This document shows positions 7,561-64,000 of a stretch of DNA of 64,000 bases, in pieces. The position numbers and the translations under genes were made by a program. Under the pieces are notes generated by a model. It worked only from the letters and a program-made list of their open reading frames with translations, was not told the origin of the DNA and made no database searches. Position 1 is the stretch's first letter, and each line of letters begins with the position of its first letter. This DNA comes from Blasia pusilla (taxonomy: Eukaryota): the NCBI GenBank assembly GCA_050084515.1, contig CM114271.1, positions 46,562,001 to 46,626,000 on the forward strand. Direction: 5' to 3'.

Positions 7561-7589
7561 TTCTCATGTTGTTATGTGAGAATATTTAT

Positions 7590-40269: not shown

Positions 40270-40740
40270 ACATTGGTCTAATGACATTTGAAAGCTTGGC
40301 TATTGTTTATCGTAAGGATATATTTGGATATACTACCATTCCTCGAGGGATTTATTATTTTGGGATTAGGAATTTCATGTTGGAGATTATATGTGCTTAA
40401 AGCAGTCAACATTGATATTTTTAGATATTACTACAAGACACACGATTTTGTGTATACGTGACGCGTTACGCATCAAAATCCTCATGTTGGAGGATCAAGA
40501 TAGTATGGTTTGGAAGGATCACGTGTGCAATTGCGTACTATGTCATCTTTCAAATCTAGATGAGAGAGTATATTCAAGCTTGGGAGTTGTACTAATAGGC
40601 TTGAGATATATGTTGTATGGATCTAAGATGGATATATCCATCATATTGGTTTGTGATGGTTTTTGTGGAGGGTATCATATGTTATGCTTCATTCCCACTC
40701 TTGATGCAGATCCCATTGAATAATAGGTGTGTGCTATATG
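40270..40740 (+). mobile_element. Degenerate integrase C-terminus and PHD fragment of the gypsy lineage
   Basis: TILCIRD...MVWKDHVCNCVLCHLSNLD...LVCDGFCGGYHMLC. Confidence 0.75.
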
Positions 40741-43700
40741 TGTATATTGTACTCTATTACATGAGGCTAAGAGTTTTAGTACTACCTAGCGTTAGGAAAC
40801 CTAATTTGTAGATAGGGGAAGGTTTGTAGTCTTGGTATATATGCATGAACCTCTTCTTTTTGTATAAATCTTCTTGGATGTTGGGAATTGATAGTGTTTA
40901 TTGTGTGAATGTGAATAGTGATGTAAATTGGGTATCGATTTGTATGCCCATGACAACTTTTAAATCATTGTTAGTCGAAACGTAGAATTCTACCATGCCA
41001 ATGGTATAGAGAATGAGCGGGATGTAAGGCTATATTTTTTTTCTTGGTCCAATGAAGTTAGTTAGAGAGTTTTTTCATTAGAACCAAAATTTTAAAAAAA
41101 CTCTTATTTTTATTTATGGCCAAGTAATCCATGGACTAAGTCAATGATCACTTAATGAATTGCGTGCATATGTGACCAATTTTTGCTATCTTTGGGTGAG
41201 GGCTCTTTTGGCTCTTTCCAAAGGTATATAAATGGAAAAGAATCTTGGATATCAAGATCCCTATTTTTCATATCAAGCGTTTGCAATACTTCTTCCTCTA
41301 AGGATTGGTACATAGGAGATAGACTGTTAAAGTTTGGATTTCCTCATGGCAAAGGGCAAAAGGATCTTGACAACCATATGTACTTTTCACTATGTTATTG
41401 GCCATATGCATGTAAGCCTTTCTTATTGCAATTTTTTTCATGGTTTCATTGTGCATGTTTTAGTATATTTCAAAGTGTATATGAATTGGAATTTGGGAAA
41501 ATCAAAGGTATTTTTTGTAAGGATATAAACAACGATATGCATGCAAAAAAAATTCCTTATATCCCTACAACAATATCGTATAGATCAAAGTATCAATACT
41601 TTGATCTACCCTATCGTTTTTCTCATAGGATCCATAAGGCAACTCATATATAGGTTATGGCCACTATTGTATGAAGGGTGAATGGGTGTAGGATAGATAT
41701 AAATGCATCATCCTCTTTAATATTTTCTTTTGATAGGTTGTAAAAAAATTCAATAATATAAATCTAACAATAAGAATGATCAATAGGAGCCCTCCAAAAA
41801 AAATTTAATGGGATGATATCCCTTTACTAATTTATCCAAAAAAAATCCGATATTCATGTTTAAGTTTATGATTCCGGATTTCAATCAACCTCTAATTCAA
41901 GATCTTTTCTTTATAAAAAATTTGCATCTAGCATTGCAATAATAACACTTCCATGTTTTTAGTGTGAATGTTAATGGTCCATATATTTTTTTTCTATATT
42001 CCATTTTAACCATACGCCACAACATTTAATCTTGTGGATGTGGAATTTTAACATAAGGTGTAATGGGAAAAATGTCCAAGGGATGCAAATACAAGCGTAG
42101 CAACCTTTGAGCCATATTCAATCTACGTTAGGGAACAAAGTTCTTTTAAAAATGATTAAATCCAGTTTAAATATCAAGAACGATCATGGATCGTCAATTA
42201 TGAATTTAGAAAGGTAGATGAGATTCTATCTATACTTAGAGGGATCTTTTTTAGTTCCCATTTTAGAAGGATATGATAACCTCTTATCTATTTTACCCTG
42301 TTAATTTACTTATATGTATGGATTACCCTTCCCTTGTGTTTGAGTAGCACTATTTGAGAGGGTTTATCTCTTATGCATCTTGTGGCACAATTAGGTGTCT
42401 TGGTAGTTGGTGATGCCACTTTGGCCTATGAGGATTAAGAAAGATGTATCATTAAAGGTAGTATCCTCTTTTATGAGGCCTTTCCTTGTTCTTCTTACCT
42501 TTGGTTCCTATGGAGAGAATTATGTATCATGTACTTCAGGTCCTTTGTGACATATTCTAGGTGGATAACCAATGCACATATGTTATCATGGAGATTGTCC
42601 ATGGAGATACATCCCCAAGGAGACTCACTTTTAGATTCATATTTAGATATCAAAGTCAAACATATGGATATCCGTGATACATTGTAGCTAGGTTATGCTA
42701 GTGTATCGGGCATGGATTTACTTAAGCTAAGAGTTGGCTAGGATTGATATTGAGATCACGTATTGGTCATTGGATTCTATTGACTCATATCTCTTTAATA
42801 TGAACATGGTATGCATATATAAAGTACTTAGCCATATTGGGAGTGCACATAGTGTTAGAACAATAAGTAATACCCTTCCAACAATTCATATCTGAAGATT
42901 TAGAAGGATTAGGTGTATCCAATCATTCATATATAGATATCTAATATTTATATGATAAATGGATCTTATATTTGATCTTATGACATCCAATGAATGTTGA
43001 TTAGAAATATATATTTGCAAGACACCAAAACTCCCTAAATTATAATGTCTAAGAACATCAAATTTTTTTTTTTTATTTTCTAGATATGGAATCTACAAAC
43101 CCTTTAATACAATTCTAGCCCAATTAACTTCTCCATGAGACTAATCCATCAATGGTTTGTTAAATGAGATCTTAGACCTATTTATACATGCCCAAATTTT
43201 CTCATTATAGGAAATTTTCTACTTGACAAGGCCTCATTTTCCTTTTTCATCTTGAGCCTTAATAATAGGAGAATTTATTTAGTACTTAGAAGTTTTTTGC
43301 AAAATTTTTGAGTTGCATGAAAATTTATTTTAGTACCTAAAAGATTTTTAACATCTAGGTTGCTTTTATGTGATACTCTTTGATTCTCCGTAATATGAAG
43401 GAACATAAAGATCATAGATTCTTAGAAAATTCCAAAAGAGAGATAAGAATTTGAGGTGATTTTCAAGAACTAGACTTTGAGTTTTTTGTTAAGTTTCCAA
43501 AGAATAATAATCTCTTAAAGATCCAACTTGATTTCTTTGCAAGTATGATGAAACTAACAAGTCTAAAGGAACATCATGGATTTGGTCAAATCTTGGCCTA
43601 ATTTTCATAACTCATATTTCATACAACAATGATACTTTCTAGTTCAAAATCAATGCCATACAAAATTAGTAAACTCAAAGGGAATTTTTGTGCATATAAT

Positions 43701-43879: not shown

Positions 43880-45560
43880 AAAGGATAAAAACCTCATCAT
43901 TATTCATCAACCACTTTAGATGGTTGATGGAGTCTAACAAGCCTATAGAAAAGCTTGCCAGATGGGCACTCTTCTTGGGGGAGTATGGTTTTCAATCTGT
44001 CCATCACCTCAAAATTCTAAACCAAGATGCAAACGGGTTGAGCGGTAATCCATACATGTGCTAGAGCGATGGAACTAGAGCTTAGTGGTATGGTGAGAGT
44101 GATGACAAGATGATGTCGTGTTGGGACACATCTACCTATTTGTGTCTATTGGCTATGTTAGGTTACCAGAAGGCATCCACTCCAAGAAGGAGATTAGACA
44201 GTGAGTCTTTATATTCAAATGCTAGTGAGGAGTCAAGAGGGACTCGAGACATCCGTGATCATGATATGGTCTTGGAGTGCTTATGCACTAATGTCTTAGC
44301 ATACACAGTGGGTACTACAAAGTGGGATTGAGTCTTATAGCAAGCATGGATTTTCAAATGGGATGGAAAGTAGGTGCTTTGAGTTTAGGAGAATGATCAA
44401 GTGCTGATAGTACCACATCCTTCACAATGTGCACAAGTTTTTAGACATGCTCACAAGGAGTTGGGCCATTTTGGATTCAAGCATATGTATAGCTTGCTTT
44501 AAATTCAATATTGGTGGCATAGTATGCAGATTGATGTTCAACATTTTGTAGCTAGATGCATAATATATGATACGATGTGGGCATCGTTCAATGCTCGGAC
44601 GTCACTCTTTCATCCTTTATTGATCACAGAATTAGGGTATTGCTAAAGTTTAGACTTTGCAAAGCCCTTACCATTGACAAGATTTGGTATGTGTTGGTCA
44701 TGGTGGAGGATTTCTCCAAATGGATTGAGTTGGTAGCATTGCTGGAAAATCGAGCAAGAGAGCATCTTATACATTTCTTAATCAAGTGATGAGTTATTTT
44801 GGCACACCAATAGAGGTGTTGTTAGAAGAGGGTATTAAGTTTAAGGATGACTTTCAAGCCTTATGTGATCAAGCACTCATAGATCATCATACAACTTCTC
44901 AAGATCATTTTAAGGCAGATAGTTTGGAGAGTTATGTGAGAAAGTTGTGAAGATGGTGAAGAGAGGATTGAGTATGCATAGGCTACAAAGATGACACTTA
45001 GGAGGTTGGGACCTACAGTTGCTCTGGTTGAAGAAGGATTACCGCTTGAGTCGATATATATCCTTGACATCATTTTCATCGTATTTCTTGCTCTATGGGA
45101 AAGAGCCAAATTTCTATCATATATGCGATAGGATGTTGTTGAGGTACTTGAACTTGATGACCCATATGTATTCTTAGTGGGCTAAGCTCCTTTGGAGAGT
45201 CATGCCTATGGCATTGGAGAATCTGGCTAGCACTCAATATTGCAATGCTCTGAGATAGGGGACGACGAGTGGAGAAGGCTATCGACCAGAGATTCGGAAA
45301 TTCCATCCTTGCAATTATGTCTACCAAAGGTAGATAGCATTGAAGATATTTGACCTGACGGCAAGACACACTATTTTGCGAGTGTGAGAGGCTTTCTCTT
45401 TAAGCGTTCTCGTGTTAGAGGATAGAGATGGTATTGTTTGGAAAGATCATATCCATAATTGTCTGTCATGTTATCTTCATAACATTGATGGGAGTGTCAA
45501 TCCAAACTTAGCAATTATTCCTACATGCTTGAGATATGTTTTGTCTGGGTCTACACAATA
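43880..45560 (+). mobile_element. Degenerate RNase H, integrase and PHD start of the gypsy lineage
   Basis: HQPL..WLMES, HKELGHFG, YVLVMVEDFSKWIELVAL, DGIVWKDHIHNC. Many stops. Confidence 0.8.
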
Positions 45561-45562
45561 TA

Positions 45563-45946
45563 CCAAAATGCATAGAAACGCAGTTTTCTGTCCTTGGGAT
45601 GGACTTATCTAGATATGTCCGTAAACATGCCATCCCGTACTAGATCCCACACTTTTCTCACGTCGTGGCTTGCAATCAGCCCGCAAGGGCCGCAACCCTT
45701 AGATGGGGGCCCCCAAAAAAAATTTAAAATGCCCTCCTGTGCGGGCTATCCATCCACATCCGGCCTCCTCCTTGCCCTTGCCCCTCCCACACAGGAGGGA
45801 TACCGACTTAGGGGGGTGTAGTGCAAGATCAGATAAGGTAAGCTTGGATGCGAGTGTAAGGTGCGGGCGGTCAAGCCACACAAACATGTCCATCCCTAGA
45901 ATGGACATAAGTGCTAGGACACGAACTTTGTTTGTGTGCAACCCTG
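45563..45946. mobile_element. Diverged MITE related to the 18781-19083 element
   Basis: Left end caaaatgcatagaaacg versus caaggttgcatggaaacg; right end gtgtgcaaccctg; similar aaacatg..ggacataagt subterminal motif. No TSD found. Confidence 0.5.
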
Positions 45947-46739: not shown

Positions 46740-47369
46740 TATCATGACTGTTAGGATAGATCGGCAAGATCTAGTAGAGCACCTTTGGAGATACTAGAAG
46801 ATAGCTTCAGGAGGTCGAGGATGACTTGCTGAGGCCACGGGTAACTTGAGAAAGCAGGTTTCCCCTTTGTTTCGGCTCATTTGGAGTCATATAGAGAAAA
46901 CTTACTATTTTGGGCAAGTTTCCATCTAGATTATAGTTGAATTTCCACTTTGGGAAGTGGCGATTTACCCGCTACAGTAGGTCAAGAGCCAAGGAGGTGA
47001 CCTGTGAGCATAGGTTATCGAGGAGAGAGCTTGGGAGAGGGAAGGGGATATACTCCAAGAGAGAGAGCTTGAGAGCTTATTCTATCTTCGTTGAACCTCT
47101 TGGCATGATGCAACGGAGCTATGATCCTCTTTGCCTTGTGTGTGTAACCCAAGCCTCTCATTAGGAGAATGGATTTAGTTTAACATGAGAGAGTGTGCAC
47201 ACCATAGAGAGCTTGGTGTGAGATGTGATATGAGATCTACTTGATTTATTGGAGATATTTTGGTACTCCTCGTCTCATTGTTTGGATGCCATGAGTTAGC
47301 ATCGAATTGTGCTTGTTTGTGTGTATGTTCAATGACAGCGATATATGTTGTGTAGCGATGCGCACGACA
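46740..47369 (+). mobile_element. Solo A+B terminal unit (solo-LTR equivalent) of gypsy subfamily 2 with 4-bp TSD
   Basis: Collinear with 8455-9099; ends tatcatga (decayed TGTCA) ... GCACGACA; flanked by TCAC at 46736-46739 and 47370-47373. Confidence 0.88.
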
Positions 47370-49309
47370 TCACCTATATAGAGAAAAACCTCTTCAAGAC
47401 TCACCTTGGGATTTACTAACCTCTCTCCTCACCCAGATCTCCAAGAAATTGACATGTCTTCATAAATTACAAAAGGGATGCCAACAAGTCATCATTATAC
47501 TATGAGATTCTAAGCCTATATGGAGATTCTCTATCATACTACATTATATTTTTTGGCTTGATTTCAACTAGAATTACACTTAACTCTCATTAACAATCAA
47601 GAGCTATCTCTTCCAATCAAGAAAGCCAACCATGGTCCTAAATAACTTCTCTAAAATGATAAGTAACGTAATATGGGCCCGATAATACCAACGTAGGCAA
47701 TAAATTACAACCAATTTTCATACAAGCATGCATATCAATGCTTGACCTCTCTAAGTATGTCACACAAAGTTACTCCTCTCCATTACAAATGACGTGTAAT
47801 AACGGAGTCATAAATTATAGGTTCCAAGTTTATAAAATTGTCTCTTTTCCAAAAGAAAAGAAGAGTGTGTGCTTCTTCAAATCACTCGTCCCAAGTATTT
47901 GCTAGTTTAATGGTTTGTGTGACTTGAGATGTTATGTTTCTTCGTCATCGATCCATGTTCATACACTCTCATACGATAGACATCCCTCATGTGTCAAGGG
48001 GAGATGGAGCAAGATGTTGATCTATCCCAAGTATGAGAAGTACAACAATTAAGAATCCAATCACCATTGATTTCTCAATAGTAATAATTTTGTGTAAGTC
48101 TAAGCACATGAACTCCATTCATTTCTCTCTTTAATGTTGCAATTATTTAGCACTAACTTATTTTGAGAGAAAATTAAACATAAAGGAAATTTGTATTTTT
48201 TTAGGATTTGGTTGTGGAAAAAAAATCTAAAATGTAATGTCTTAAGGGTAGTGAGAAGTTAAGAAAAAATGGTTGCAAGCTAAAGAAAAAAGATCTTTTG
48301 CAAGAAAAAAATAATAATTGATCATTTTTTTAAGATAAAGACATATCTATCTAAGAAGGTGTTTGAAGAGAGTGCATAGTCTCCAATAGCAGTAAAGATT
48401 GATTAAGATGAGGGGGGTTTACCAAACCGAATGTATGTAATCCTAAAAAAAATTTTCAATAGGACTTGTGTAATACTCCTTGGTGTTTGAGAGATCCAAA
48501 ATCAGGGCTATTTCAAATCCTAAACCCATGTAAACTCTATTAAAGTTTTAATTATTTTGTTGTAAAAAACATTTAGAATAAAATTTGGCAAGAAATTAAA
48601 AAATCTAATAATTGTGTCAATAGAGAAAATTATTTCAAAATATAAATCGTAGAAGGTAGTGAAAATTTCAGGAAAAATAGTGGAGGGAAGACAAGGATAT
48701 AATTTTCATAAACCAAAAGTTTAATAATGAATGATGGAACGAACAAAAATTGAGGAGCCTAAGCGTCTCCTGTCCATATCTTTGGTTCTATATCCCTCCT
48801 CTCATATTTGTGCTCTCCATCCATTGGATGATTTCATTCATGTATGTAAGAAGGGTATGACTTTCACTCTTGAATCTTGTGGGTATATGAAAACCTAAAG
48901 ATCTGACAACTCAAAACTTTCGTTCAACCCTTTAGCACAATTTTATTCCTTATGACTATGATTTTGTGATAGTAGGATTTCTCAAAGCATACCTACCCCA
49001 AGTTTTATGACTTAGTCACCAATTCGTAAAAAGAAAAAATAGGGTATTTAAGGAGGTACTTGCTTGGGTTGTAGCACATCACCATAATCCTTGAACACTC
49101 AAATATAAACCTTACATTCTTTAAAAGCAAAAAATATAATAGATGCCACAATTTATTGGTTAGAGGCCACATATGTGTAATCTCTAAAGGCTATGGCTCA
49201 TGGCCCACACAAGGGGACTTTGGGAAGCCCTATTGAGATCACACTAAACTTGTAGATTCCATTGAGAAGCTTGTAGGGACTCAAAATTGTAATAGGGTCT
49301 GAAAGTAAA

Positions 49310-50034
49310 AAAAATGCACTTTCTTATAGAAAAAAAGTCTCAAAAAGGATAAAGGAAGGCAACAACATGCCAAGAAGAGAATGAGTCAAGAAACATAAAA
49401 AGAAATTTGCAAGAAGCCATCACAAAAACCAACTCAATGAGCTACATAATGAATAACTTGAAACAAATCTCACAGAAACATTAGACGTTTACATGGATGG
49501 TCAAACAAAAATGGATGACAAGATTAGTGGCTACCAACCACTTCCGCTCGATGTGTCAAATCCAATGCTTGTGCACGTTGTAATGCCACCAGGATATATT
49601 GTCAAAAATAAGTAGTGACTATGGAGAGAGAAGGATTACGATAAGGGACGAGTTGATGATTCTTGAGGAACTAGTGAGCACATCTTTTGAAGAGATAATC
49701 AAAAGACACATATAAGTGCCCAAAAAAATCTACTATGAAAGGAATAAATCCATCGGTAATATGTCTCACCACATAACTCCTTGATTCTTGTTGATGTATT
49801 GGCCACAATAACTTTAGTATATACATCCTGACACACCACATCATAAAATATTCACTTAGCAAACCATCACATCACCCAATAGATGAAAGTCACCTTGGGA
49901 CATAACAAGATAAACTCATTCACAAGAGGTTGCTTGTGTAGTAGAAGGTAGGACGTGTAGTTACTCTTGCCCAACGATATACCTTGTTGTAGGAGCCATC
50001 AATAATATTTCCTCTCTAATCACATTGTGGGTTT
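49310..50034 (-). mobile_element. Degenerate 3' end of a second CRE-like element, interrupted by the gypsy insertion
   Basis: Collinear with 14165-14885 (e.g. gaggttgcttgtgt.gt.gaaggtaggac.tg.agtt.ctcttgcccaacg). Similarity stops at the TGTCAT start of the gypsy element. Confidence 0.8.
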
Positions 50035-50400
50035 TGTCATGACCATACGGATTATGTCGTAGAGTATGGTGTGCTAGTAGAGGCCATTCCTTATGTAGGA
50101 CCATAGTGGCTTGGTAGAAATGCGGTTCCATACATAGGGTTGGGGGTTACTCAGTTGGGGGTGACTTTCCCAGTAGGGCCCGCTCTTAGGTTGGAGGATA
50201 TAAGGTGGAGTGCACTCAAAAAATCGATTCTTTGAGTTGAGCCTTTATGCGTTGGGAGTTAGCCTTGGTAGTGAGTAGAGCTCTTGGCTATGGTGTTTCC
50301 CGCAAGCTTCGACCTAGATTCTCCCATCGTGGAGTGGGTTTGGCTCGATTGTATGTGATTGTATATGTGTTTTATGACAGTACGTCTTTCACGGATTTCA
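50035..50400 (+). repeat. 5' terminal repeat A1 (TG...CA, 366 bp) with TATA box
   Basis: TGTCATGACC...ATTTCA; TATAA at 50199-50203; homologous to 53559-53926 (-) and 63938-64000. Confidence 0.9.
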
Positions 50401-52226
50401 CTCAAAGAACTGCAGTTGATCGATGGTAGCTTCGATTGTAGATCAGTAGGATTTGGTTAGGGCTGATTGTGTACTCAACCGTGGATGTTCGTGGCTTGTG
50501 GCCTATGTTGGAGGTGTGAATCTGGTGCGTGGTTGGTTGGGAAAGAAGCGCCTTGCTGAGAGCTTTCCAACGCGCTTTAGATCGCCGGATTTCGTCAAGG
50601 GAGTTGGAAGTTATCAAGGATTGAAGATTCTGGTTCGTGTTCGACGGTTTTCTGATGTGGAGAACTTGGAGTGCGGAAGCTCTATTGAAGTTCATCCAGA
50701 TCGGGTGAGAGGTTCCTGCTGCTACTTGTATTGTGATCTCATGTGAATCTATCTGCTCGAGTGTGTGGAGCGTTGCGGATTTCTGCGTGCATGAAACTTG
50801 GCGGAAGCGCTGTCGGATTTACGATTCTGGAGGTGTATGGACAGCAAGTTTGTCTGATTTTTAGCTCGGAGTACAGAGCTCGGTTGTAGCTGATTTTTTG
50901 TGGAGAGATAGCTATGGTGGTCAATTGAATTTTGGTTGAAATATATTTGATTTCAATCACGGATTTGTGAAGTAATTTCTGATCGAAATTTCACGGACTA
51001 GCTCAAGGTCTGGCTATGGTGGACAGCGGATCGGAGGGGCTGGTTGGTTGGTGACTCGTTCATTGTTGGAGACGCCTATCCCGTTGGAGGCGCCCTGGTT
51101 GAGCCTCGAGCCATGTCTCGGAGTTTTGAGGCTTCGAGGCTTCGAGGCAACTCGTGGTAGCTCGGGGCGAGTGGGCGTGAGAGGCGGAGTAAGGAGCAAG
51201 GAGCAAGGAGCAAGCAAGCAAGTTCAACTGGAGTTTTATGGCCCTGACCAGGATCACTTTGAGTGGAAATCCGTTATAGGTGGTTTGAATTAATATTTTT
51301 GCAAACGGCACGTAGCAGGTTTTATACTTGCTTGCTTGGGCGTGAAGCAATTTTTGCAGGATTTGGGATTTGAGTTTTGCATAACTGGTCACCCATCTTT
51401 GGGCTATTCTACCTAGAGGACGCTTAACTGTTGGGTTCTTAACTATGCCAGTGTACACACTGTTGTAGCTCATTTGGTGTTGTTCGGAGATGTGTTAGGC
51501 ACTTTATGCATCTCAGGTTTTTGGTTGATGTACCTCTAGCGCATAGTACGGTGTAGCCTCTCCATACAGGTGATATTTTCAGGTGCTGTGAGTTCGACTA
51601 GCACGTCATCGACCCGCGGCGGAGTAGCTATTGCGTTAGAATTGTGTGGTGGGTTTTGTGGATTCAGGGGGCACCACCTTTGGTGGATTATGTTACCTTG
51701 AATTCCATTTGCGATTGGAGGGTTGTCGTTGGACTTCCTGTGTTTGGATCCCCTCCATCGGTGCTTCTTGCTAGCGCGCCCATTGTTAGGGTAGACGCTG
51801 ATTTCCAGAGTAGTGTTACTCCTGTGTGCTACTGATAGTGAGGCTGGAGTGATGACGAGTAGACCGTGGGAGGCTTCTTGTGGTGATGAGAGGTTAGGTT
51901 GCCTACACCCATAGCTAGTAGAGCTACACTAGTAGAGCGACATCGACGTCACTTGGTAATTTGGTGGTGGTGCGGCATCGGCATTGGTCATCACGGAGTT
52001 GTCGGGTGGTCTGGTTGGGGACCGTGGTGCGGACAGTGGTGGTTTCACACGGAGTGGATTTAGGTATCGGCTACCTTTTCCACTTCCGACGGTTGATGAA
52101 GAGGAGGACGAGGGTGTTCCAAACACCGAGTCTTCTACGTTGTTATCGAGTGTTGCAGCTCCATTGATTTGGGACATGGACGGTGGATATGGAGCCATGA
52201 AGGGCCCACGATGATACTCGGGTGCA

Positions 52227-53452
52227 GTGGGCACCATTGAGTTGGAGGACTTCATGCAGGAGTTTGATACGTGGTGTGATATGCAGATGTTGCGGAACGC
52301 CACGTTGTTTACATCCTTCTTGGCTTGGAAGGGGTTGTTTCAGCACTTGGAAGGACCACCCATGGATGATTACCATGAGTTTAGGAAGGACCATGTTGCT
52401 GAGATTGAGGCATGGAGACAATATTGGTCTCCAGGCTATGTGTCTATCACCCATGGTGGTATTGGTAGTAGTGCTCCTACTATGCCAGCCAGCCCGACGT
52501 TGAGTGGTACGAGTACGAGCCGGAGTGGGGGTACCAATGGAGGTACTAGTGGGGGTACTAGTGGAGGTTCTAGTGCCCCACTATCGTTCAGCCCGGTTGC
52601 AGAGTTCTTCAAGAGGTTGAAGAAGAACTATCAGGGAGTGAAGACGGAGAAGTTGAGGAATCTTTAGGACTTTGAGCGAAAGACTGGTGAGAGTCTTCGT
52701 GAGGCATACATTCGTATCACGCTGATTTCGATTACCAAGGTGTGCGAGGATCGAGGCGATCCATTTTTGGTATGGGATCTTGGAGAGAGATTTGCGCCGC
52801 AGGGTACGTGATGCTACTCTTATGAGTGATGATTCACCCACATTGACCCATGTATTTGCTTTATCTGAGAAGATTGAGCTTAACATGATGAAGGAGAGAG
52901 TGGTGACATCCGCATTCAGTAGGGATACAACTACTACTTCTCGTGTTCAGCCGCCCACCTCACAGTCTCGTAGTAGTGGTGGTGGTAGTAGTAGTGGGAG
53001 TCGTGGGGGGTACACACGACCTCAGTCAAGTCCTAGAGGGACACTTGCGCAGAGACCATTGCCTTCATTTGCTGCCCCGCAGCAGGGCGATCATGTTGGA
53101 CATGTGGAGGTGATCATGTTAGGAAGTTTTGTCCCCAAGAGGATGGGAGACGGACTTTGGAGGATGGGCCTCAGTCGGCCCCAACTAAGTGTGATGATTG
53201 TGGGAGACCAGGTCATCCTCGAGAGCGTTGCTTTGATCTTCATCCAGAGTTGAGATCAGGCCGCGGCCGTGGTGGAGTAGCTCTGAGAGGCCGAGGTGGT
53301 AGAGGTGGTAGGGGTGGACCAATGGTTGGAGAGCCTACGGTGGCTACCCCTACCACTACGACAGAGTCAGCTATGGCTACCAGGATTGAGCAGTTGGAGC
53401 AGAAGTTGGCTACTATGGCTGGTATCCAGCATAGATCAGGTTCGGGAGCAGG
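52227..53452 (+). pseudogene. gag with two zinc knuckles (frameshifted, truncated by the nested insertion)
   Basis: Capsid-like ELEDFMQEFDTWCDMQ...FFKRLKKNY; knuckles CWTCGGDHVRKFC (~53094) and CDDCGRPGHPRERC (~53190); RGG-rich tail. Confidence 0.8.
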
Positions 53453-56400
53453 TGTCGTGCGAATCCACATCGTCATACAACATACATCGCTGACATACCA
53501 TACGCACATACATACATAACATAGACGAGAGTATCCACAAAGGCAAGTGTACCACAATTGAAATGCGTGAAAGACCTACTGTCATAAAACACGTTTACAA
53601 TCACATACAATCGAGCAAAGCCCACTCCACGATGGGAGAATCTAGGTCGAAGCTTGCGGGAAACACCATAGCCAAGAGCTCTACTCACTACCAAGGCTAA
53701 CTCCCAAGCATAGCAGGCTCAACTCAAAGAATGATGTTCTTTGAGGGCAAGCCACCTTATATCCTCCAACCTAAGAGCGGGCCCTACTAGGAAAGTCACC
53801 CCCAAGTGAGTAACCCCCAACCCTATGTATGGAACCACATCTCTACCAAGCCACTACGGTCCTACATAAGGAATGGCCTCTACCAAAGACACCATACTCT
53901 ACGACATAATCCGTATGGTCATGGCGGTGTCGTGCGAATCCACATCGTCATACAACATACATCGCTGACATACCATACGCACATACATACATAACATAGA
54001 CGAGAGTATCCACAAACGCAAGTGTACCACAACTCGCCCCCCTAACTGGCGGTTAGGTCCCTCTAACTCCCAGGTAGCCCTATACATCTACTACATGCTA
54101 TACACCTTCTTGGGTGCCCGAATCAGAAGGCCGGGTGCTAGGTTGCCCCATCGTTAGTCGCACATCGTAATCCATATCATGCAAAGATCAAGTCATCTAC
54201 CTCTCCTAAGTACATCGAGGACAAACCCACCTTCCAGTAGGAACAACATCCAAACGTGGAGTCAAACACATCATGTGCCAACCCCTAGAACACCGATCAC
54301 ACACCAACATACGGGTTGCGTTACCAGCAGACCCACACAACATGCACCTCAAGCTAGCACGTATCATGGCTAAGCTTGGGTCAACAATACCATCCACATT
54401 TGGAAGATGACATGGCGCACAATTACGCACATGGTCCTTCCAAACAACTCCATCACGACCCTCCAACATGAGAACTCGAAGCTAACACCTCACACACTCG
54501 TAAAATAGTGCGGCTGCCATCACATCCAACGTTGTCGGGCAATCTGCTGCAAATAGACATAGTCCCCACATGGAACCTACTGAATCGATGGTAGATAACC
54601 TCCACTCGAATGGTTGCATACCGCAACGTATCCTGTGTTGAGCAATGGCAAGATTCTCAAAGGTTGTTGGCATAACTCTCCGAAGAGCTCCGCCCCGAGA
54701 ACACACCCTCATCCACATCTCGGGTCATCAAGGTTCACCACCTCACTAGACTCGACAATTCTTTCTTTGGCAAGTCAAGATCTCGACCGTATAACAGAAA
54801 ATAAGGTGAGAAGGAAGCCAAGGATGCTTGGCGATCGAACCTATATCCCATGGCTAACCATGGCAAGCTCGAATATCCTGTCTCCAAGATGCCCTTCAGA
54901 GGCCATACTTGCGCAATGCCCTCTTCACCGTCGAACCACATGCTCAGCCAAACCATCCGCCTCTGGATGATCTCGAGGCGTGGTCCGATGATCAATCAAC
55001 GCCTTGTCACACAAGACATGAAACTCACCTGAAACTCAGACCCTGGTCGGTCAAGACACTTCAGTGGTGCACCAAAATGACTAAGCACTCTATCCAAACG
55101 CATACGCCGTTCCTCACTTGCCTTGTCCGGTAATGCCACCAACTCAATCCACTTGGAGAAGTGCTCCACCATCACCAACACATATCGATGATGTAAATGC
55201 GGTGAACGGTAACGGTCCCGCAAAGTCCACACTCCAACGGTAACCCAACCCCATAATAGGCAAGGGGTGTAATTGTGGTGTAGGGGCATTAAATGATGCC
55301 CTCACCGGTCACAAACCATACAACGTGACACGAATGCTGCACCTGAGTATGCATGCCACGCCACCAATCTTGGCCAAGGAGTAAGCTATACGCACGCTTT
55401 ACCCCAAAATGTCCCAACTCCTCATGGACATGTCGCACAATCGCTCTCTCTCGAGCCAAATGTGGCACTACTCGTACTCTACCATCCTCCCACACGCGGA
55501 GAATATGTGTTCCCTCAATCGATACCTCTTAGCACGTTGAAGAACACGGTCTCGCTCCTTGGCACTCACTATGCCTGGCACCCTCTTTGGTCCGTAGGAA
55601 CTCCAACACCAACGCATCATCATGAATATCACGCTGATCCGTACCACCATCTCCAACCTTAGGATCTGAAGGCTGGCCGTCTACCCTCTGACTAGAGTAA
55701 GATATCATGTGGTCCTCCATACTAGAGTCCACCCCTAACCAACATAAAAAGGCGGATGCATGCCAACCTGGCACCATCTCCTCATCAACCTCGCCATGCC
55801 ATCTAGCCCCAGTTGTATCCTCTTGGCTAGTACATGGGTTCCTACTCAACCCATCAACATCAAGGTTGGCAACTCCAGGTCTATGTACCACCTGGAAGTC
55901 ATACTCCTGTAAGATAAGAGCCCACCGTGCAAGCTTCCTTGTAAGCTTGTCCGACTCCATCAACCACTTGAGCGGCCGGTGATCAGTAACAAGGGTAAAC
56001 TGTGTGCCAAACAAGTAACACCTAAAGTGTGCCACAGCCCACACTATTGCCAAGCACTCTCCCTCATATGAACTATAGCGCGACTCCGCTGCATTATTCG
56101 AACGACTTGCATAGGCCACCACAAACTCCATGTGCTCATCATCATATTGTGTCAACACCGCTCCAAGTCCCAACCTACTCCAATCAGTGTGTAACTGGAA
56201 TGGGCGCCCTCTGATAGGTCTCCTCAAGATAGGCGCCGCCACCAACTGGGCCTTAAGCTCCACAAAAGCTCTCTCTTGATCATCTCCCCAGTGCCACTCT
56301 TGATATGATTTCAGCAATTGGTTCAAAGGCTTTGCCATAGCACTAAATCCCTTCACATACCTCCGATAGTAGTTCGCCAATCCCATGAATGCTCGAACTC

Positions 56401-59400
56401 TACTCACATCTACCGGACGCGGAATAAGTGCAATAGCCTCCACCTTTGCTTGCTGAACTCCCAAACCACCTGGATAGATCACATAACCCAAGTACTCAAC
56501 ATCCTCATGGAAGAACTTACACTTTCCTGGATGCAAACGTAGACCATGAGCTTTCAACCGCTCAAACACCATCTGCAAATGTATTTGATGCTCCTCCACC
56601 GTGTTACTGAACACCAAGATATCATCAATGTAACACCGAACAAAATCCAACCCTGCTAGGATCCTGTCCATCACTCTTTGAAACTCGGAAGGTGCATTCT
56701 TCAACCCAAAGGGTAAGAATTTCCACTGGTACAAACAATCCTTGCCATGAGAGTTGACATCCCAAAATCGTTGTCTTGGCCTTGTCACTCTCCCGAATCG
56801 GCAATTGATGGTATCCTGCCCGAAGATCCAAAGTACTGAAAATCTTTGCCTGTCCCACCACATCAAAGATCTCCTCAGGTGTAGGCATGGCATACCTATC
56901 GGCCTTGGTTTGCCGATTGATAGGACGGTAATCTCCACACATCCGCCTATCCGTGTAGTTGCCATGCATATCCTTTTTAGCAGGCATGATAGTGGTTGAT
57001 GCATACTCTCCATGCGACAACTCCACTAATCCAGCCTCCAAAAGGTCCAACGTCCTACTCTGAATCAAGTCCCTCTCCATATCACTATATCGGTAGGGAC
57101 GACAGAAGATTGGCGTATCACTAGCCAAATCAATCCGTATACCGGGTCCAACCAGAGAACCCAACTCCTTCATGCTAAAGGCAAAACAACTCCTATAAGC
57201 ACGTAGGAGGCTGTGTCAGCGTCGTTTCTCACCTCCCGTAGCTTGGGCCCAAGTAATGGCTCCCAAGTCTCCTCCTTTGGCACACTAGAGGGAGAGGCGA
57301 TGCCATTGTCTGCTCATAACCCCCTCACAAGATGGTACACCCTTAGCTACACCATCATCCGAGCAAATAACTCCTCCACCAAAGCATGAGCAACCAACTC
57401 CACATGCCCACCATTACATCCCATCTACTCCAAGGATGCAAAATACTACTCTCCTCTTGACCGATGCCTCTACCGTCCCGGTAGCCATCGAGCTCATTAC
57501 AAGGGGTGGAAGACCCATGACATAGTCCGAAGTCGATTTGCTCGGCCATACCAAGACTCAAAATCCAAGTCAAACAATTCAGGTCCATGGCGACCCAACA
57601 CATGACGTCGTGAAGCCTCGAAATAGAAGCAACATTTGTCACACCGATGCAAATCCCATCGCACGCTCTCTCTCATCAGCGTTAGGCTCCACCAATTGTC
57701 GCACATGAGAATCCCATACAAGCCCCCAGGACCACCTTCCTGTAGGCATGTGACGAGGAAAACTCACAAATGTGGGTAGTGCCATCTAGGGGTGGCCCAC
57801 ACGGTTCACCTTGCCATGGGTGACCGATCAATAACCCTCACCACTTGAGAAAGTCGCCCAAGATATCAAGATACTATCCATTGTAAGGCGAGATCATTGC
57901 CTTTGCATCATATGCTCGACGTAGAACCTCCCTAGGCAACAAGTTTGTCCACCACAAGCGTGGGCGATGTGCACGTGAGCCAACTCGCATTGCATCCAAC
58001 AACACCGCTGGTCCAATCCAAGACCGCACCTCATGAACACTCGCCATCATCCGGGTCCGAGTGTCACCCAACAATGGAACATTCTCCAAAATGCTAAGCT
58101 AGAGCACGCGCTTGCGATGAACATTGAAGATGTCGTAACACCCGTAACATCTCCCAAAACAATCGAGCTAGGGTCATGTAATCCCTCACCACGACCAAAG
58201 ACGTGTATGACATCTCGACATGGCCATCCGATGCAAATCACCAAATCCACAGGACCAACCTCTCAAGGTCCTGCGCTCAACAATGCAATGTGTGATGGTA
58301 AAGCATCGGTACCCACGAATAGCTAATGGCGGCAACAATGGGGGGATACCTCCATCAAGCGACCAATATGTGGATGAGACTCTCGGTGGGCGACCGTCTC
58401 ATCTCGCTCCACATACACGTATATCCCTAAGAGGAATACCGGCTGCAACATGGATGCATTACCAAACGTGCTGATCCCACCAAAGAGATCTAACACACAA
58501 ATTGCCCTATGTTGGCGAGTGGGATCTTGCCATACAATGGGTGTAGTATCCAAAGGGGATAACCCAATAGAGTCTTGTTAGGAGTCCGTGGGGTCTCCTC
58601 TTTGATGGGGAAAGCGGCATGACCTCACACCAAGCCTCTGCACTAGGCTTGAGCCTTGCCCATTCTAGATTCAAACATCAAAGTGGCACATCCAACGATG
58701 AGGATGCCAATTCTGCAAAAATAGGGACCTCCTCTACCTCCTCATGAGGAGAATCCATAGCAGAAACATAACCCTCCAAAAGTCTCTGGCCAAGTGACTA
58801 CTCCACTAAAACCACCCGTATGATGCTAACATTGTTGGGGAAGACCCTCCTAGTCGAGCCCCCAAATAAATCTCAGATGGAACTTGGCTCATACGTCCAT
58901 CCCCGGATTGCCAACCAGGTCTGTAAGACGTTGTCTCGATTTATTTAATCCATCTGAAAACCCATCGGGTCTTCTCCTCCAACTAGTACATCATACGACT
59001 GGTTTTAGTGGATGTGACTCACTTGGCAGATATTCCCAAGGGAGCTTTCGCGTCGCATGATTGGTCTCAATGAGGTACAAAAAACTTCTCCCTATCATGA
59101 ATTGAGATCTATCATTGGCTCCTCCAAGTGATGTTTGAATCTAGAATGGGCAAGGCTCAAGTTCGCCCTCGAATACCCCAAACCAATACATGCCGCCTTG
59201 CCCAACATCAAGGGCTGCGCTCCTGAGTCTAACAAGACTCTATCCGGTCTATACACTGCCTTGTAGGACTCACCAATCGGAAGATCCCACTCCGGTTGTC
59301 CAACATACATACACCAGGTGTAAGCCTTCACGATCAATGGTTGGCCGTCGATGTAATGCATCCATCTTCGCGGTATTCTGCCTGCCGGAAGTAACGTGGT

Positions 59401-59735
59401 ACTCAATGCTACACGAGATAGAGGGTCGCTCACCGCAACATCCTCATCCACCTCAACACGTGAGCAAGAATACACCCCCATGTTCACACAACCGCTATTA
59501 GCTGAAATGGGTACCAGGAGCTAAGTCAACTCCTAAAGCCATCACATTGCATTGAAAAAATGGGGGGAACACCGGTTGCCATCCGTCATCTGATGGATTT
59601 GCATCCGTGTCTACTGGACACCAATGTAGATGCCTCGGTCCCCCCGTCTGCCGGCTCAATAGGTGAGGAACCATGGATGGAGTCCTTGTTTTGGACAACA
59701 AGAATGACGGGAAGCGACATCTCGAGGTTCAATAC
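53453..59735 (-). mobile_element. Nested inverted copy of the same family (5'-truncated): PR, DNMT, RT, RH, INT, PHD, B1-A2-B2
   Basis: Protease VLLDSGAQ (~59230); DNMT 57550-58510; RT YIDD; RH DWS...EGECLA; INT; PHD 54209-54345. PPT 54032-54045, B1 53928-54031, A2 53559-53926, B2 53453-53556. Its repeat variants differ from those of the outer copy. Confidence 0.85.
57550..58510 (-). pseudogene. C5 DNA cytosine methyltransferase domain within the gypsy pol (frameshifted)
   Basis: Motifs in canonical order: I VLDLFGGIS, IV DLVICIGWPC...GEGLHDPSS, VI ENVP, VIII DAMRVGSRAHRPRLWWTNL, IX-X EPNADERER.MGF / RRHVLG..MDLNCLTWIL. Confidence 0.85.
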
Positions 59736-59749
59736 CGTGCTCTAGCTTA

Positions 59750-60300
59750 CATTTTGGATAATGTTCCATTGTTGGGTGACACTCGGACCGGATGATGGCG
59801 AGTGTTCATGAGGTGCGGTCTTGGATTGGACCAGCGGTGTTGTTGGATGCAACGCGAGTTGGCTCAGCGTGCACATCGCCCACGCTTGTGGTGGACAAAC
59901 TTGTTGCCTAGGGAGGTTCTCGTCGAGCATATGATGCAAAGGGCGGGATCTCGCCTTACAATGGATAGTATCTTGGATCTTGGGCGACTTTCTCAAGTGG
60001 TGAGGGTTATTGATCGGTCACCCATGGCGGTGGTGAACGTGTGTGGGCGGCCTACGATGGCACTACCCACATTTGTGAGTTTTCCTCGTCACATGCCTAC
60101 AGGGAAGGTGGTCAGGGCTTGTATGGGATTCTCATGTGCGACAATTGGTGGAGCCTAACGCTGATGAGAGAGAGCGTGCGATGGGATTTGCTCGGTGGTG
60201 TGACAGCGGTTGCTTCTATTTTACGAGGCTTCACGACGTCATGTGTTGGGTCAGGCCATGGACCTGGAATTGTTTGACTTGGATTTTGAGTCTTGGTATG
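59750..60300 (+). pseudogene. C-terminal half of the DNMT domain in the outer copy
   Basis: DNVPLLGD, RAHRPRLWWTNL, EPNADERERAMGF and HVLGQAMDL fragments across frameshifts. Confidence 0.8.
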
Positions 60301-60540
60301 GCGAGCGTCGACTTCGGACTATGTCGTGGGTCTTCCACCCCTTGTAATGAGCTCGATGGCTACCGGGGACGGTAGAGGCATCGGTGGGGCGCAGGAGAGT
60401 AGTATTTTGCATCCTTGGAGTAGATGGGATGTAATGGTGGGCATGTGGAGTTGGTTGCTCATGTTGGTGGAGGAGTTATTTGCTCAGATGATGGTGTAGC
60501 TAAGGGTGTACCATCTTGTGAGGGGGTTGCGTAGCAGCCA

Positions 60541-63500
60541 ATGGCATCGTCCTCTCCCTCTAGTGTGCCAGTGGAGGAGACTTGGGAGCCATTACTTGGG
60601 CCCAAGCTTACGGGAGGTGAGAAACGACGCTTGACACAGTTCCTACGTGCTTATAGGAGTTGTTTTGCCTTTAGCATGAAGGAGTTGGGTTCTCTGGTTG
60701 GACCCGGTATACGGATTGATTTGGCTAGTGATACGCCAATCTTCCGTCGTCCCTACCGATATAGTGATATGGAGAGGGACTTGATTCAGAGTAGGACGTT
60801 GGACCTTTTGGAGGCTGGATTAGTGGAGTTGTCGCATGGAGAGTATGCATCAACCACTATCATGCCTGCTAAAAAGGATATGCATGGCAACTACACGGAT
60901 AGGCGGATGTGTGGAGATTACCGTCCTATCAATCGGCAAACCAAGGCCGATAGGTATGCCATGCCTACACCTGAGGAGATCTTTGATGTGGTGGGACAGG
61001 CAAAGATTTTCAGTACTTTGGATCTTCGAGCAGGATACCATCAATTGCCGATTCGGGAGAGTGACAAGGCCAAGACAAAGACATTTTGGGGTGTCAACTC
61101 TCATGGCAAGGATTGTTTGTACCAGTGGAAATTCTTACCCTTTGGGTTGAAGAATGCACCTTCCGAGTTTCAAAGAGTGATGGACAGGATCCTAGCAGGG
61201 TTGGATTTTGTTCGGTGTTACATTGATGATATCTTGGTGTTCAGTAACACGGTGGAGGAGCATCAAATACATTTGCAGATGGTGTTTGAGCGGTTGAAAG
61301 CTCATGGTCTACGTTTGCATCCAGGAAAGTGTAAGTTCTTCCATGAGGATGTTGAGTACTTGGGTTATGTGATCTATCCAGGTGGTTTGGGAGTTCAGCA
61401 AGCAAAGGTGGAGGCTATTGCACTTATTCCGCGTCCGGTAGATGTGAGTAGAGTTCGAGCATTCATGGGATTGGCGAACTACTATCGGAGGTATGTGAAG
61501 GGATTTAGTGCTATGGCAAAGCCTTTGAACCAATTGCTGAAATCATATCAAGAGTGGCACTGGGGAGATGATCAAGAGAGAGCTTTTGTGGAGCTTAAGG
61601 CCCAGTTGGTGGCGGCGCCTATCTTGAGGAGACCTATCGAGGGCGCCCATTCGATTACACACCGATTGGAGTAGGTTGGGACTTGGAGCGGTGTTGACAC
61701 AATATGATGATGAGCACATGGAGTTTGTGGTGGCCTATGCAAGTCGTTCGAATAATGCAAATGGAGTCGCGCTATAGTTCATATGAGGGAGAGTGCTTGG
61801 CAATAGTGTGGGTGTGGGCACACTTTAGGTGTTACTTGTTTGGCACACAGTTTACCCTTGTGTTGATCACCGCCGCTCAAGTGGTTGATGGAGTCGGACA
61901 AGCTTACAAGGAAGCTTGCACGGTGGGCTCTTATCTTACAGGAGTATGACTTCCAGGTGGTACATAGACCTGGAGTTGCCAACCTTGATGTTGATGGGTT
62001 GAGTAGGAACCCATGTACTAGCCAAGAGGATACAACTGGGGCTAGATGGCATGGCGAGGTTGATGAGGAGATGGTGCCAGGTTGGCATGCATCCGCCTTT
62101 TATGTTGGTTAGGGGTGGACTCTAGTATGGAGGACCACATGATATCTTACTCTAGTCAGAGGGTAGACGGCCAGCCTTCAGATCCTAAGGTTGGAGATGG
62201 TGGTACGGATCAGCGTGATATTCATGATGATGCGTTGGTGTTGGAGTTCCTACGGACCAGTAGGGTGCCAGGCATAGTGAGTGCCAAGGAGCGAGACCGT
62301 GTTCTTCAACGTGCTAAGAGGTATCGATTGGAGGGAACACATATTCTCCGCGTGTGGGAGGATGGTAGAGTACGAGTAGTGCCACATTTGGCTCGGAGAG
62401 AGCGATTGTGACAGCGACATGTCCATGAGGAGTTGGGACATTTTGGGGTAAAGCGTACGTATAGCTTACTCCTTGGCCAGATTGGTGGCGTGGCATGCAT
62501 ACTCAGGTGCAGCAGATTAGTGTCACGTTGTATGGTTTGTGACCGGGTGAGGGCATCATTTAATGCCCCTACACCACAATTACACACCCTTGCCTATTAT
62601 GGGGTTGGGTTACCGTTGGAGTGTGGACTTTGCGGGACCGTTACGTTCAGCATGCGACATCATCGATATGTGTTGGTGATGGTGGAGCACTTCTCCAAGT
62701 GGATTGAGTTGGTGGCATTACCGGACAAGGCAAGTGAGGGAACGGCGTATGCGTTTCTGGATAGAGTGCTTAGTCATTTTGGTGCACCAGCTGAAGTGCT
62801 GACCGACCAGGGTACAGAGTTTCAGGGTGAGTTTCAGGTCTTGAGTGACAAGGCGTTGATTGATCATCGGACCACGTCTCGAGATCATCCAGGGGCGGAT
62901 GGTTTGGCTGAGCGTGTGGTTCAGACGGTGAAGAGGGCATTGCGCAAGTATGGCCTCTGAAGCGGCATCTTGGAGACAGGATGTTCAGTTGCCATGGTTA
63001 GCCATGGGGTATAGGTTCAGTCGCCAAGCATCCTTGGCTTCCTTCTCACCTTATTTTCTGTTATATGGTCGAGATCCTGACTTGCCAGCAGCAATTCGTC
63101 AGGAGTCTAGTGAGGTGGTGAACCTTGATGACCCAGAGATGTGGATGAGGGTTTGTTCTCAGCGGGCGGAGCTCTTCCGGAGAGTTATGCCAACAACCTT
63201 TGAGAATCTTGCCATTGCTCAACACAGGGATACGTTGCGGTATGCAACCATTCGAGGTGGAGGTTATCGACCATCGATTCGTAGGTTCCATGTGGAGAAC
63301 TATGTCTATTTGCAGCAGATTGCACCGACAACGTTGGATGTGACGGCAGGCCGCACTATTTTACGAGTGCGCGAGGTGTTAGCTTCTGGAGTTCTCATGT
63401 TGGAGGGTTGTGATGGAGTTGTTTGGAAGGACCATGTGCGTAATTGTGCGCCATGTCATCTTCCAAATGTGGATGGTACTGTTGACCCAAGCTTAGCCAT

Positions 63501-63660
63501 GATACGTGCTAGCTTGAGGTGCATGTTGTGTGCATCTGCTGGTAACGCAGCCCGTATGTTGGTGTGTGATCGGTGTTCTAGGGGTTGGCACATGATGTGT
63601 TTGACTCCACGTTTGGATGTTGTTCCTACTGGAAGGTGGGTTTGTCCTCGATGTACTTAG
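60541..63660 (+). pseudogene. pol: RT, RNase H, integrase and PHD finger (several frameshifts)
   Basis: RMCGDYRPIN, FSTLDLRAGYHQ, LPFGLKNAP, YIDD; RH EGECLAIVW; HHCC zinc region (HEELGHFG...CMVC); catalytic core VEHFSKW, LTDQGTEF, GLAER; terminal C4HC3 PHD CMLC...CDRC..GWHMMC...WVCPRC. Confidence 0.93.
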
Positions 63661-64000
63661 GAGAGGTAGATGACTTGATCTTTGCATGATATGGATTACG
63701 GATGTGCGACTAACGATGGGGCAACCTAGCACCCGGCCTTCGATTCGGGCACCCAAGAAGGTGTATAGCATGTAGTAGATGTATAGGGCTACAGGAGTTA
63801 GAGGGACCTAACCGCTTGATTAGGGGGCGAGTTGTGGTTTTGTGTGTTTGTGGATACTCTCGTCTATGTTATGTATGTATGTGAGTATGGTATGTCAACG
63901 ATGTATGTTGTATGACGATGTGGATTCGCACGACATTTGTCATGACCATACGGATTATGTCGTAGAGTATGGTGTGCTAGTAGAGGCCATTCCTTATGTA

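Follow-up and report, generated by a model that had tools for sequence, protein, structure and literature searches.

A PHD finger at the integrase C-terminus of decayed Ty3/gypsy retrotransposons, probably of the Gypsy-DNMT3 type, in Blasia pusilla

In a stretch of 64,000 nucleotides from the genome of Blasia pusilla (GenBank assembly GCA_050084515.1, contig CM114271.1, positions 46,562,001 to 46,626,000 of the forward strand; the whole of this stretch is referred to below as the window), the integrase encoded by a family of broken retrotransposons ends in a PHD finger of the C4HC3 type. The finger was confirmed as genuine, far beyond chance, at all five sites where a preliminary description of this DNA had placed it, and the combination of pattern search, Pfam and tblastn showed that two of the five are intact and three decayed. 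The host element is best explained as a family of Ty3/gypsy retrotransposons with long terminal repeats (LTRs), of the streptophyte 'Gypsy-DNMT3' type, a name found in the accessible part of a 2026 preprint (bioRxiv 10.64898/2026.05.21.726589), and the family order that best explains the remains is gag, protease, DNA methyltransferase (DNMT), reverse transcriptase (RT), RNase H, integrase and PHD finger.

The intact fingers belong to two copies that lie head to head, copy A (approximately 53559-59736, minus strand) and copy B (59736 to the end of the window, plus strand). The relevant open reading frame (ORF) of copy B (62932-63657, plus strand) encodes 236 amino acids, of which the terminal residues are CMLCASAGNAARMLVCDRCSRGWHMMCLTPRLDVVPTGRWVCPRCT, followed by a stop codon. 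The finger makes up the last 45 residues of the integrase and directly follows its SH3-like C-terminal domain. The PHD finger of copy A, from which that of copy B differs at two residues, is likewise followed by one residue and then a stop. In both copies the zinc ligands are spaced C-x2-C-x11-C-x2-C-x4-H-x2-C-x14-C-x2-C, which is canonical for C4HC3, and a six-frame search of the 64 kb found the full pattern at these two sites only (63520-63654 and 54212-54346), each of them an integrase end. The sites in the window were as follows.

62932-63657, plus strand: ORF of copy B encoding the C-terminal part of the integrase (helical linker, SH3-like barrel) and the PHD finger (translation; predicted strands at residues 118-168; 77 relatives)
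63520-63654, plus strand: PHD finger (C4HC3) of copy B, last domain of the polyprotein (pattern, PF00628, model and structural superposition)
63658-63660, plus strand: stop codon of copy B, one residue beyond the last zinc-binding Cys (sequence and translation)
54212-54346, minus strand: PHD finger (C4HC3) of copy A (pattern; PF00628 in ORF 54209-54481)
7597-8136, plus strand: decayed older copy of the integrase C-terminus and PHD finger, with stops (tblastn, 74% identity; PF00628)
40370-40744, plus strand: strongly decayed copy of the integrase C-terminus and PHD finger (tblastn, 44% identity; no Pfam match)
45010-45558, plus strand: decayed copy in which similarity reaches only the first Cys pair of the PHD finger (tblastn, 48% identity)

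The decayed copies were located by tblastn with the 236-residue ORF of copy B as the query. In the copy at 7597-8136 a stop falls within the last Cys pair of the finger, in that at 40370-40744 several zinc ligands are gone, and that at 45010-45558 is part of a longer decayed pol region (43921-45558). For Pfam analysis, all 203 stop-to-stop ORFs of at least 70 residues in the window were scanned. The search for PF00628 that had been proposed as a check placed three window copies above the gathering score (cut-off 24 bits), namely copy B (E 8.1e-11, 42.2 bits), copy A (E 1.5e-11, 44.6 bits) and the decayed 7597 copy (E 3.6e-9, 36.9 bits, in ORF 7795-8115). The finger was also said to stand where chromoviruses carry a chromodomain, and this was borne out: the chromodomain PF00385 was found neither in the 203 window ORFs and 8 relatives (E≤0.001) nor in 25 further relatives (E≤1e-4).

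With the C-terminal ORF of copy B as query, 77 longer proteins were retrieved; PF00628 was listed for 72 of them and all eight zinc ligands were kept, as judged by the pattern, in 67. The best named relative was the Marchantia polymorpha protein P0003 (Mp_7g09570; 84% identity). In its gene model a protease-like end is joined to a broken piece of DNMT and to an integrase C-terminus with a PHD finger; the model looks like a chimera built from a decayed element copy and not a host PHD gene. P0006, which stems from a transcriptome assembly, is a complete ORF. The other named sources were Calypogeia fissa, Klebsormidium nitens (P0017 and P0026, integrase-PHD proteins with 52% identity), Pleodorina starrii, Volvox reticuliferus and Tetrabaena socialis, the relative from the last of these being without a PHD finger; the volvocine algal proteins P0037 and P0042 fall into the same integrase-PHD family. 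When 1.84 billion representatives were searched exhaustively without a profile, 5192 matched at E≤0.001, of which 1019 reached E≤1e-10 and 302 reached E≤1e-30. Among the 150 best of these, 144 extended to query residue 232 or further, that is, through the finger; the full C4HC3 pattern was kept in 124 of 136 new representatives, and a PHD finger was present in 25 of 25 long ones. The fusion of integrase and PHD finger thus defines a large family of the green lineage.

Conservation within the finger was also evident in an alignment of 31 sequences, where the zinc ligands, D207, G212, P226, G228 and W230 were invariant or nearly so. Comparison of copy B with the decayed 7597 copy gave a dN/dS of 0.117 over 178 codons and of 0.195 over the finger alone, ratios that are approximate as synonymous sites are near saturation. 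Since these values lie far below 1, purifying selection, acting on the PHD finger as well, appears to have accompanied the divergence of the two subfamilies. The placement of the finger at the extreme C-terminus, by contrast, stood only for part of the family: it ends within 15 residues of the protein end in 31 of 67 closer relatives but in only 8 of 124 representatives, and in 95 of the 124 at least 100 residues follow it, with extensions of 100-470 residues. In P0037 the extension covers residues 1555-1883, and that of P0193 contains a PTM/DIR17-like Tudor domain (residues 1191-1239; PF21743, E 6e-8), giving a PHD-Tudor cassette on the integrase. An extreme C-terminal PHD finger is therefore a trait of the subgroup to which the window copies belong and not of the whole family.

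As to the kind of PHD finger, Pfam returned only PHD, PHDvar_NSD, PHD-1st_NSD and PHD_2 for the finger of copy B. The nearest solved chains by sequence were those of KMT2C, KMT2D, CHD4, DPF2/DPF3 (second finger), ATXR5, WSTF and PHF12, with KDM5A/B (first finger), PHF21A/BHC80, BAZ2A/B, KAT6A/B, UHRF1 and AIRE following. The best 60 solved matches included no chain of the ING, BPTF or TAF3 type and no ADD domain of DNMT3 or ATRX. On this ground, and because all Pfam matches were of the PHD type, descent of the finger from the DNMT3 ADD domain was rejected. In fingers of the ING/BPTF kind, the tryptophan of the 'cage' for trimethylated lysine 4 of histone H3 (K4 of H3; trimethylated, K4me3) sits two residues before the zinc histidine; the residue at what we take to be this cage position is Gly in the window finger.

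A structure prediction built on the 31-sequence alignment gave pLDDT values of 87-93 over the finger (residues 191-236), which is preceded by a beta-barrel with strands at residues 118-168. The modelled finger superposed on solved PHD fingers at 0.6-1.5 Å root mean square deviation (rmsd). The nearest fold was the PHD finger of ATXR5 with H3 (PDB 5vab; 1.1 Å, 43% identity), and other folds at about 1 Å were those of BHC80, BAZ2A with an unmodified H3 peptide, DPF3, MOZ and UHRF1 with an unmodified H3 tail. The top Foldseek matches to Tudor-PHD cassettes (PHF1, UHRF1) had an rmsd of 12-15 Å and do not count as support for a common two-domain architecture. In the accessible part of bioRxiv 10.1101/2020.10.15.341198, Pro60 and Gly62 of the ATXR5 finger are described as holding A1 of H3, Leu39, Cys40, Asp41 and Asp44 as recognising R2, and Val23, Gly31 and Leu37 as forming the pocket for unmodified K4. 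With the register set by the identical Cys-to-Pro spacing, these contacts would map to P, G, V, C, D, S, L, A and M in the window finger, eight of the nine being identical or conservative. By resemblance, then, the finger may belong with readers of the free H3 tail that is unmethylated at K4 (H3K4me0), an assignment that is uncertain because the position of Asp44 is not conserved.

The second domain of interest is the DNMT, which the preliminary description had placed in the same element as the finger. In copy A, a DNMT-like module with motifs I (DLFGGISTFG), IV (IGWPC), VI (ILENV), VIII (RAHRPRLWWTN) and a C-terminal ERERAMGF lies upstream of RT, and copy B, which is truncated at 59736, retains the module only from just past motif VI.

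57627-58562, minus strand: DNMT-like pseudogene of copy A, in two frames with stops (tblastn; three-frame translation)
59780-60192, plus strand: C-terminal half of the DNMT-like module of copy B (tblastn with P0018, P0057 and P0003)

The motifs of copy A and the pairing seen across the family agree with that placement. What the window holds, however, is a pseudogene, and PF00145 was detected in none of its 203 ORFs; moreover, RT and RNase H stand between the DNMT and the integrase-PHD part, so that one mature protein containing both the DNMT and the reader is not implied.

Relatives P0018 and P0057 have the DNMT module intact, in frame and before RT. Against solved structures, the module of P0018 was closest to DNMT3B, DNMT3C and DNMT3A, which made up the top 29 of its 34 matches (E about 1e-6), which agrees with the Dnmt3 assignment made in PMC5890265. 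In P0051, P0063 and P0070, PF00145 is found between RNase H and integrase. It was reached in 8 of 25 long representatives, where the DNMT directly precedes the integrase (order RT, RNase H, DNMT, integrase, PHD). By BLASTP, 22 of 24 PHD-bearing relatives showed homology to the DNMT of P0018 and P0057 in the spacer that separates RNase H from integrase (about 325 residues, E down to 3e-44), and the two without a match have short spacers there. The profile thus picks up the homologous module in only a minority of these elements. The position before RT is that of P0018 and P0057, and the position between RNase H and integrase is that of P0051, P0063, P0070, P0105, P0117, P0125, P0127, P0145, P0146, P0150 and P0193; querying by words with the DNMT portion of P0018 yielded only three more proteins and nothing additional on named organisms. 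The PHD finger and the DNMT module therefore travel jointly through most of the family, with the module at two positions in the polyprotein. As these modules are far more alike mutually than they are to human DNMT3, in a comparison that lay outside plant and algal host DNMT3, their sequences suggest that a DNMT was captured once and then relocated within the polyprotein.

What the finger does for the element has to be judged from its resemblance to other fingers and by analogy. We consider it fairly probable that it docks the integrase on chromatin unmethylated at H3K4 and so biases integration. The finger would bind the free N-terminal tail of H3, most likely with K4 unmethylated; by this contact the integration complex would be anchored to nucleosomes lying away from promoters with methylated H3K4, and the landing sites of new copies would be biased, the preference for unmethylated K4 steering them off active promoters. 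A precedent is given by chromodomains, which direct the integration of chromoviruses (Gao 2008, as cited in the accessible parts of PMC6673714 and bioRxiv 10.1101/2021.11.30.470311). For the active PHD-bearing element Gypsy-7a_cRei of Chlamydomonas, the available text of PMC9940879 gives 86 new insertions in laboratory strains and intergenic insertions at 2.6 times expectation, targeted insertion being one of the explanations that its authors offer. This bias is the sole empirical hint for tethering and an indirect one, Gypsy-7a_cRei being only a possible member of the family of the window. Several points weigh against such a docking role. PHD fingers can also bind non-histone partners, every copy in the window is broken, and in most members 100-470 residues follow the finger, which may therefore act inside a larger module. 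In addition, the position of Asp44 in ATXR5 is occupied by Ser in the window copy and is variable in relatives. In PAIPP2 the equivalent residue, Asp306, contacts R2 of H3 and its mutation abolished binding by PAIPP2, according to the accessible part of bioRxiv 10.1101/2020.10.15.341198. A Ser here could mean that H3 binding, or the preference for a methylation state, differs from that of ATXR5.

A further idea, likewise raised in the preliminary description, is that reading and writing are coupled: the finger would read H3K4me0 and thereby place or activate the DNMT3-like enzyme of the element, and the new copy or its target would be methylated. We regard this as unlikely, even though the co-occurrence of module and finger in the 22 PHD-bearing relatives, the DNMT3A/B/C affinity of the P0018 enzyme and the placing of the finger in the class of unmodified-H3 readers all speak for it, as does the statement in the available text of PMC5890265 that retrotransposon DNMTs methylate CG de novo. 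In the arrangement of the window, about 750 residues separate the DNMT, placed ahead of RT, from the integrase-PHD part, and with RT and RNase H in between, the protease would probably part the two. In the relatives with the DNMT directly before the integrase, one mature DNMT-integrase-PHD protein is conceivable, and the coupling is possibly a more natural reading of their architecture than of that in the window. It is also to be set against the coupling that P0037 and some other relatives have lost the PC motif of the enzyme and kept the finger. The parallel that had been drawn with the ADD and catalytic domains of DNMT3 accordingly survives in part, in the DNMT3-like module of a relative and in a finger of the unmodified-H3 type, and fails in that the finger is not an ADD domain by Pfam or among the best solved matches.

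Slightly less probable again is that the finger binds something other than a histone (a host chromatin or import factor, nucleic acid or another part of the intasome) or is mainly a structural zinc module of the integrase C-terminus. The lack of conservation of the Asp that contacts R2 of H3 in ATXR5 and PAIPP2 would fit this, and the many relatives that continue past the finger, P0193 with its Tudor domain among them, would fit a composite module whose specificity perhaps resides outside the PHD finger. The residues that would anchor A1 of H3 (P-x-G) and the L/V-C-D strand are, however, invariant or nearly so, and the closest solved relatives are all binders of the H3 tail. That the finger is an accident, whether a captured host exon, a chimera of gene modelling or a chance pattern of cysteines, we hold to be extremely improbable. 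All copies in the window are indeed pseudogenes, and the chimeric nature of the gene model is plain to see in the named Marchantia protein P0003, but five window copies share the finger at the same place, hundreds of diverged clusters retain it, dN/dS is far below 1 and the Pfam E-value is about 1e-11; these conservation data rule an accident out. Beyond docking of the integrase, which we continue to favour, a wider picture can be drawn that we think doubtful. In this picture an ancient green-lineage clade of Ty3/gypsy elements, reaching from chlorophytes and streptophytes to liverworts, would carry a conserved kit of a DNMT3-like enzyme and an H3K4me0-type PHD finger, the DNMT having moved at least once between the position before RT and the gap between RNase H and integrase; enzyme and finger would cooperate like the ADD-catalytic pair of DNMT3, choosing H3K4-unmethylated chromatin and methylating the element or its surroundings on arrival.

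The remaining parts of the element were traced in the same window. Copies A and B share the Ty3/gypsy domain order RVT_1, RT_RNaseH, Integrase_H2C2, rve and PHD, are 95.6% identical across 4.3 kb, and each carry frameshifts and stops, because of which they must be inactive. In copy B the rve core lies one frameshift upstream of the PHD ORF, in a different frame, whereas integrase and PHD finger form a single continuous ORF in relatives. As all copies in the window are dead, they show the design of the family and not current activity.

60535-61946, plus strand: RT and part of RNase H of copy B, broken by a stop and a change of frame (RVT_1, E 3.9e-33; RT_RNaseH, E 2e-8)
62412-62957, plus strand: integrase zinc-binding domain and rve core of copy B (PF00665, E 4.3e-12; PF17921 weak)
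54347-57185, minus strand: RT, RNase H and integrase of copy A, interrupted by many breaks of frame (Pfam in ORFs 55532-57025 and 55292-55528; tblastn with P0018)
53559-53923, minus strand: putative 3' LTR of copy A, about 365 nucleotides, starting about 285 nucleotides downstream of the PHD stop (93% identical to 50038-50400, plus strand)
63944-64000, plus strand: start of the putative 3' LTR of copy B, running past the window end (same sequence as the aligned repeat)
50038-50400, plus strand: putative LTR of a third, 5' partial copy C (93% identical to the 3' LTR of copy A)
52215-53519, plus strand: gag-like ORFs of copy C, in which two CCHC knuckle patterns occur (translations)

The repeat of about 365 nucleotides lies 3' of the PHD stop in copies A and B and 5' of the gag-like region in copy C; we read these repeats as LTRs and 50038-53559 as a 5' partial copy C. 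The ORFs at 52215-53519 gave no Pfam match at E≤0.001, and their CCHC patterns and position suggest that they represent gag. Both ends of the element occur together in no single copy within the window. The start of copy B, at 59736, falls midway through the DNMT module, at the very point where the sequence of copy A ends, and copy A, which has neither gag nor 5' LTR, is adjoined at its 3' LTR by copy C (5' LTR and gag, 50038-53559, plus strand). Three separate, simple insertions seem a poorer account of this layout than a rearrangement, or than a nested insertion accompanied by deletions.

The older copies are AT-rich, with a GC content of 0.35-0.45 (7400-8400, 40200-40800 and 44400-45600) against 0.50, and relative to copy B show an excess of C/G-to-T/A transitions (106 versus 70, 105 versus 44 and 161 versus 65, respectively). 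The excess fits deamination of methylated cytosines following silencing. Repeat-induced point mutation was considered as a cause of the AT-richness and rejected, the host being a plant, as indicated by a BRX gene, and the bias matching ordinary deamination of methylated cytosine. BRX domains were found in three ORF pieces at 25783-27565 (plus strand; PF08381, E 8e-12 to 9e-5), which are probably exons of a BREVIS RADIX-like plant gene, the only clear host gene in the window.

Other repeats and mobile elements were seen as well. A direct repeat of about 640 nucleotides (8466-9100 and 46751-47370, 80% identical) lies a few hundred to about 1200 nucleotides downstream of two of the decayed PHD copies and is possibly the LTR of an older subfamily. 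A second direct repeat (14151-14876 and 49302-50025, 70% identical) has its second unit just before the LTR at 50038, and an open frame of 542 amino acids at 14548-16173 (minus strand) gave only a weak RVT_1 match under the cut-off (E 0.0019); the region of this frame and of the first repeat unit is probably another retroelement family. An ORF of 229 amino acids at 826-1512 (minus strand) encodes a Helitron helicase-like N-terminal domain (PF14214, E 1.8e-46).

The biological weight of the window itself is small because every copy is a pseudogene, and its interest lies in the family. DNMT-carrying Gypsy elements, first described in Klebsormidium, have left copies in a land plant too, their integrase regularly ends in a histone reader, and this pairing recurs over a very large family in which the same DNMT module occupies two positions. 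An intact member could reveal how a retrotransposon picks its integration sites by a PHD finger rather than a chromodomain, and whether a mobile element reads and writes chromatin marks for its own benefit. The novelty is lower than the preliminary description had assumed: the element is of a known kind, both PHD-bearing Gypsy elements and Gypsy-DNMT3 having been published before. In the literature searched we did not find an explicit link between PHD finger and DNMT in these elements, the presence of the family in liverworts or the occurrence of one DNMT module at two positions; PMC11982613, for instance, does not treat elements of this sort.

The closest known system is KnitGypsy-Dnmt3, the Gypsy elements with an internal Dnmt3 in Klebsormidium nitens (de Mendoza et al. 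2018, PMC5890265, as far as accessible), which like the window element are Ty3/gypsy elements with a Dnmt3-like DNMT inside the Pol ORF. The K. nitens proteins P0017 and P0026 are among the integrase-PHD relatives described above, and may stem from KnitGypsy-Dnmt3 itself. The two systems differ in that the host of the window element is a land plant, whereas the available text of PMC5890265 assigns the acquisition to the K. nitens lineage, and possibly in their terminal repeats, which are DIRS-like in the legend to Fig. 4c of that paper, whereas the window shows only LTR-like direct copies and no complete element; the window copies, furthermore, are dead. The word 'PHD' is absent from the accessible text of PMC5890265 and from three supplementary files, though the figures of the paper may show one.

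A second comparison is with the PHD-bearing Gypsy elements of Chlamydomonas. One of these is reportedly REM1, which papers citing it credit to Perez-Alegre (2005). As far as their accessible parts go, PMC9940879 and PMC8557442 describe PHD fingers as a common accessory domain of Chlamydomonas transposons, Gypsy included, and PMC6673714 and bioRxiv 10.1101/2021.11.30.470311 describe them as widespread in retrotransposons generally. Gypsy-7a_cRei resembles the window element as an LTR Gypsy polyprotein with an accessory PHD finger, for which an influence on insertion sites was suggested by its authors (PMC9940879, available text). It differs in that the legend in that source lists the PHD finger before the integrase (INT), and no DNMT is mentioned for these Chlamydomonas elements in the accessible texts. 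In the chlorophyte-type relatives of the window element, for their part, the DNMT-like module sits in the spacer from RNase H to integrase, and the finger is followed by a long extension.

Chromoviruses such as MAGGY share with the window element a histone reader fused to the end of a Ty3/gypsy integrase after an SH3-like domain, with an expected role in tethering to a chromatin state. The reader of the window element, however, is a zinc-binding PHD finger in place of a chromodomain, and the mark that it reads is probably the unmodified H3 tail as opposed to methylated H3K9. The ADD domain of DNMT3 reads the unmodified state of the H3 tail, and the likeness here is that a DNMT3-like catalytic module travels with a zinc-finger reader that would fall into the H3K4-unmethylated class. 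In contrast to ADD, the window finger is a standard C4HC3 PHD finger, closest to those of ATXR5, BHC80, BAZ2 and DPF, and reader and enzyme are not neighbours: in all relatives either RT and RNase H or the integrase comes between them. Compared with the PHD finger of ATXR5, the window finger differs in having Ser at the position of Asp44, but shares with it and with other readers of unmodified H3 both the L/V-C-D strand and the P-x-G-x-W loop.

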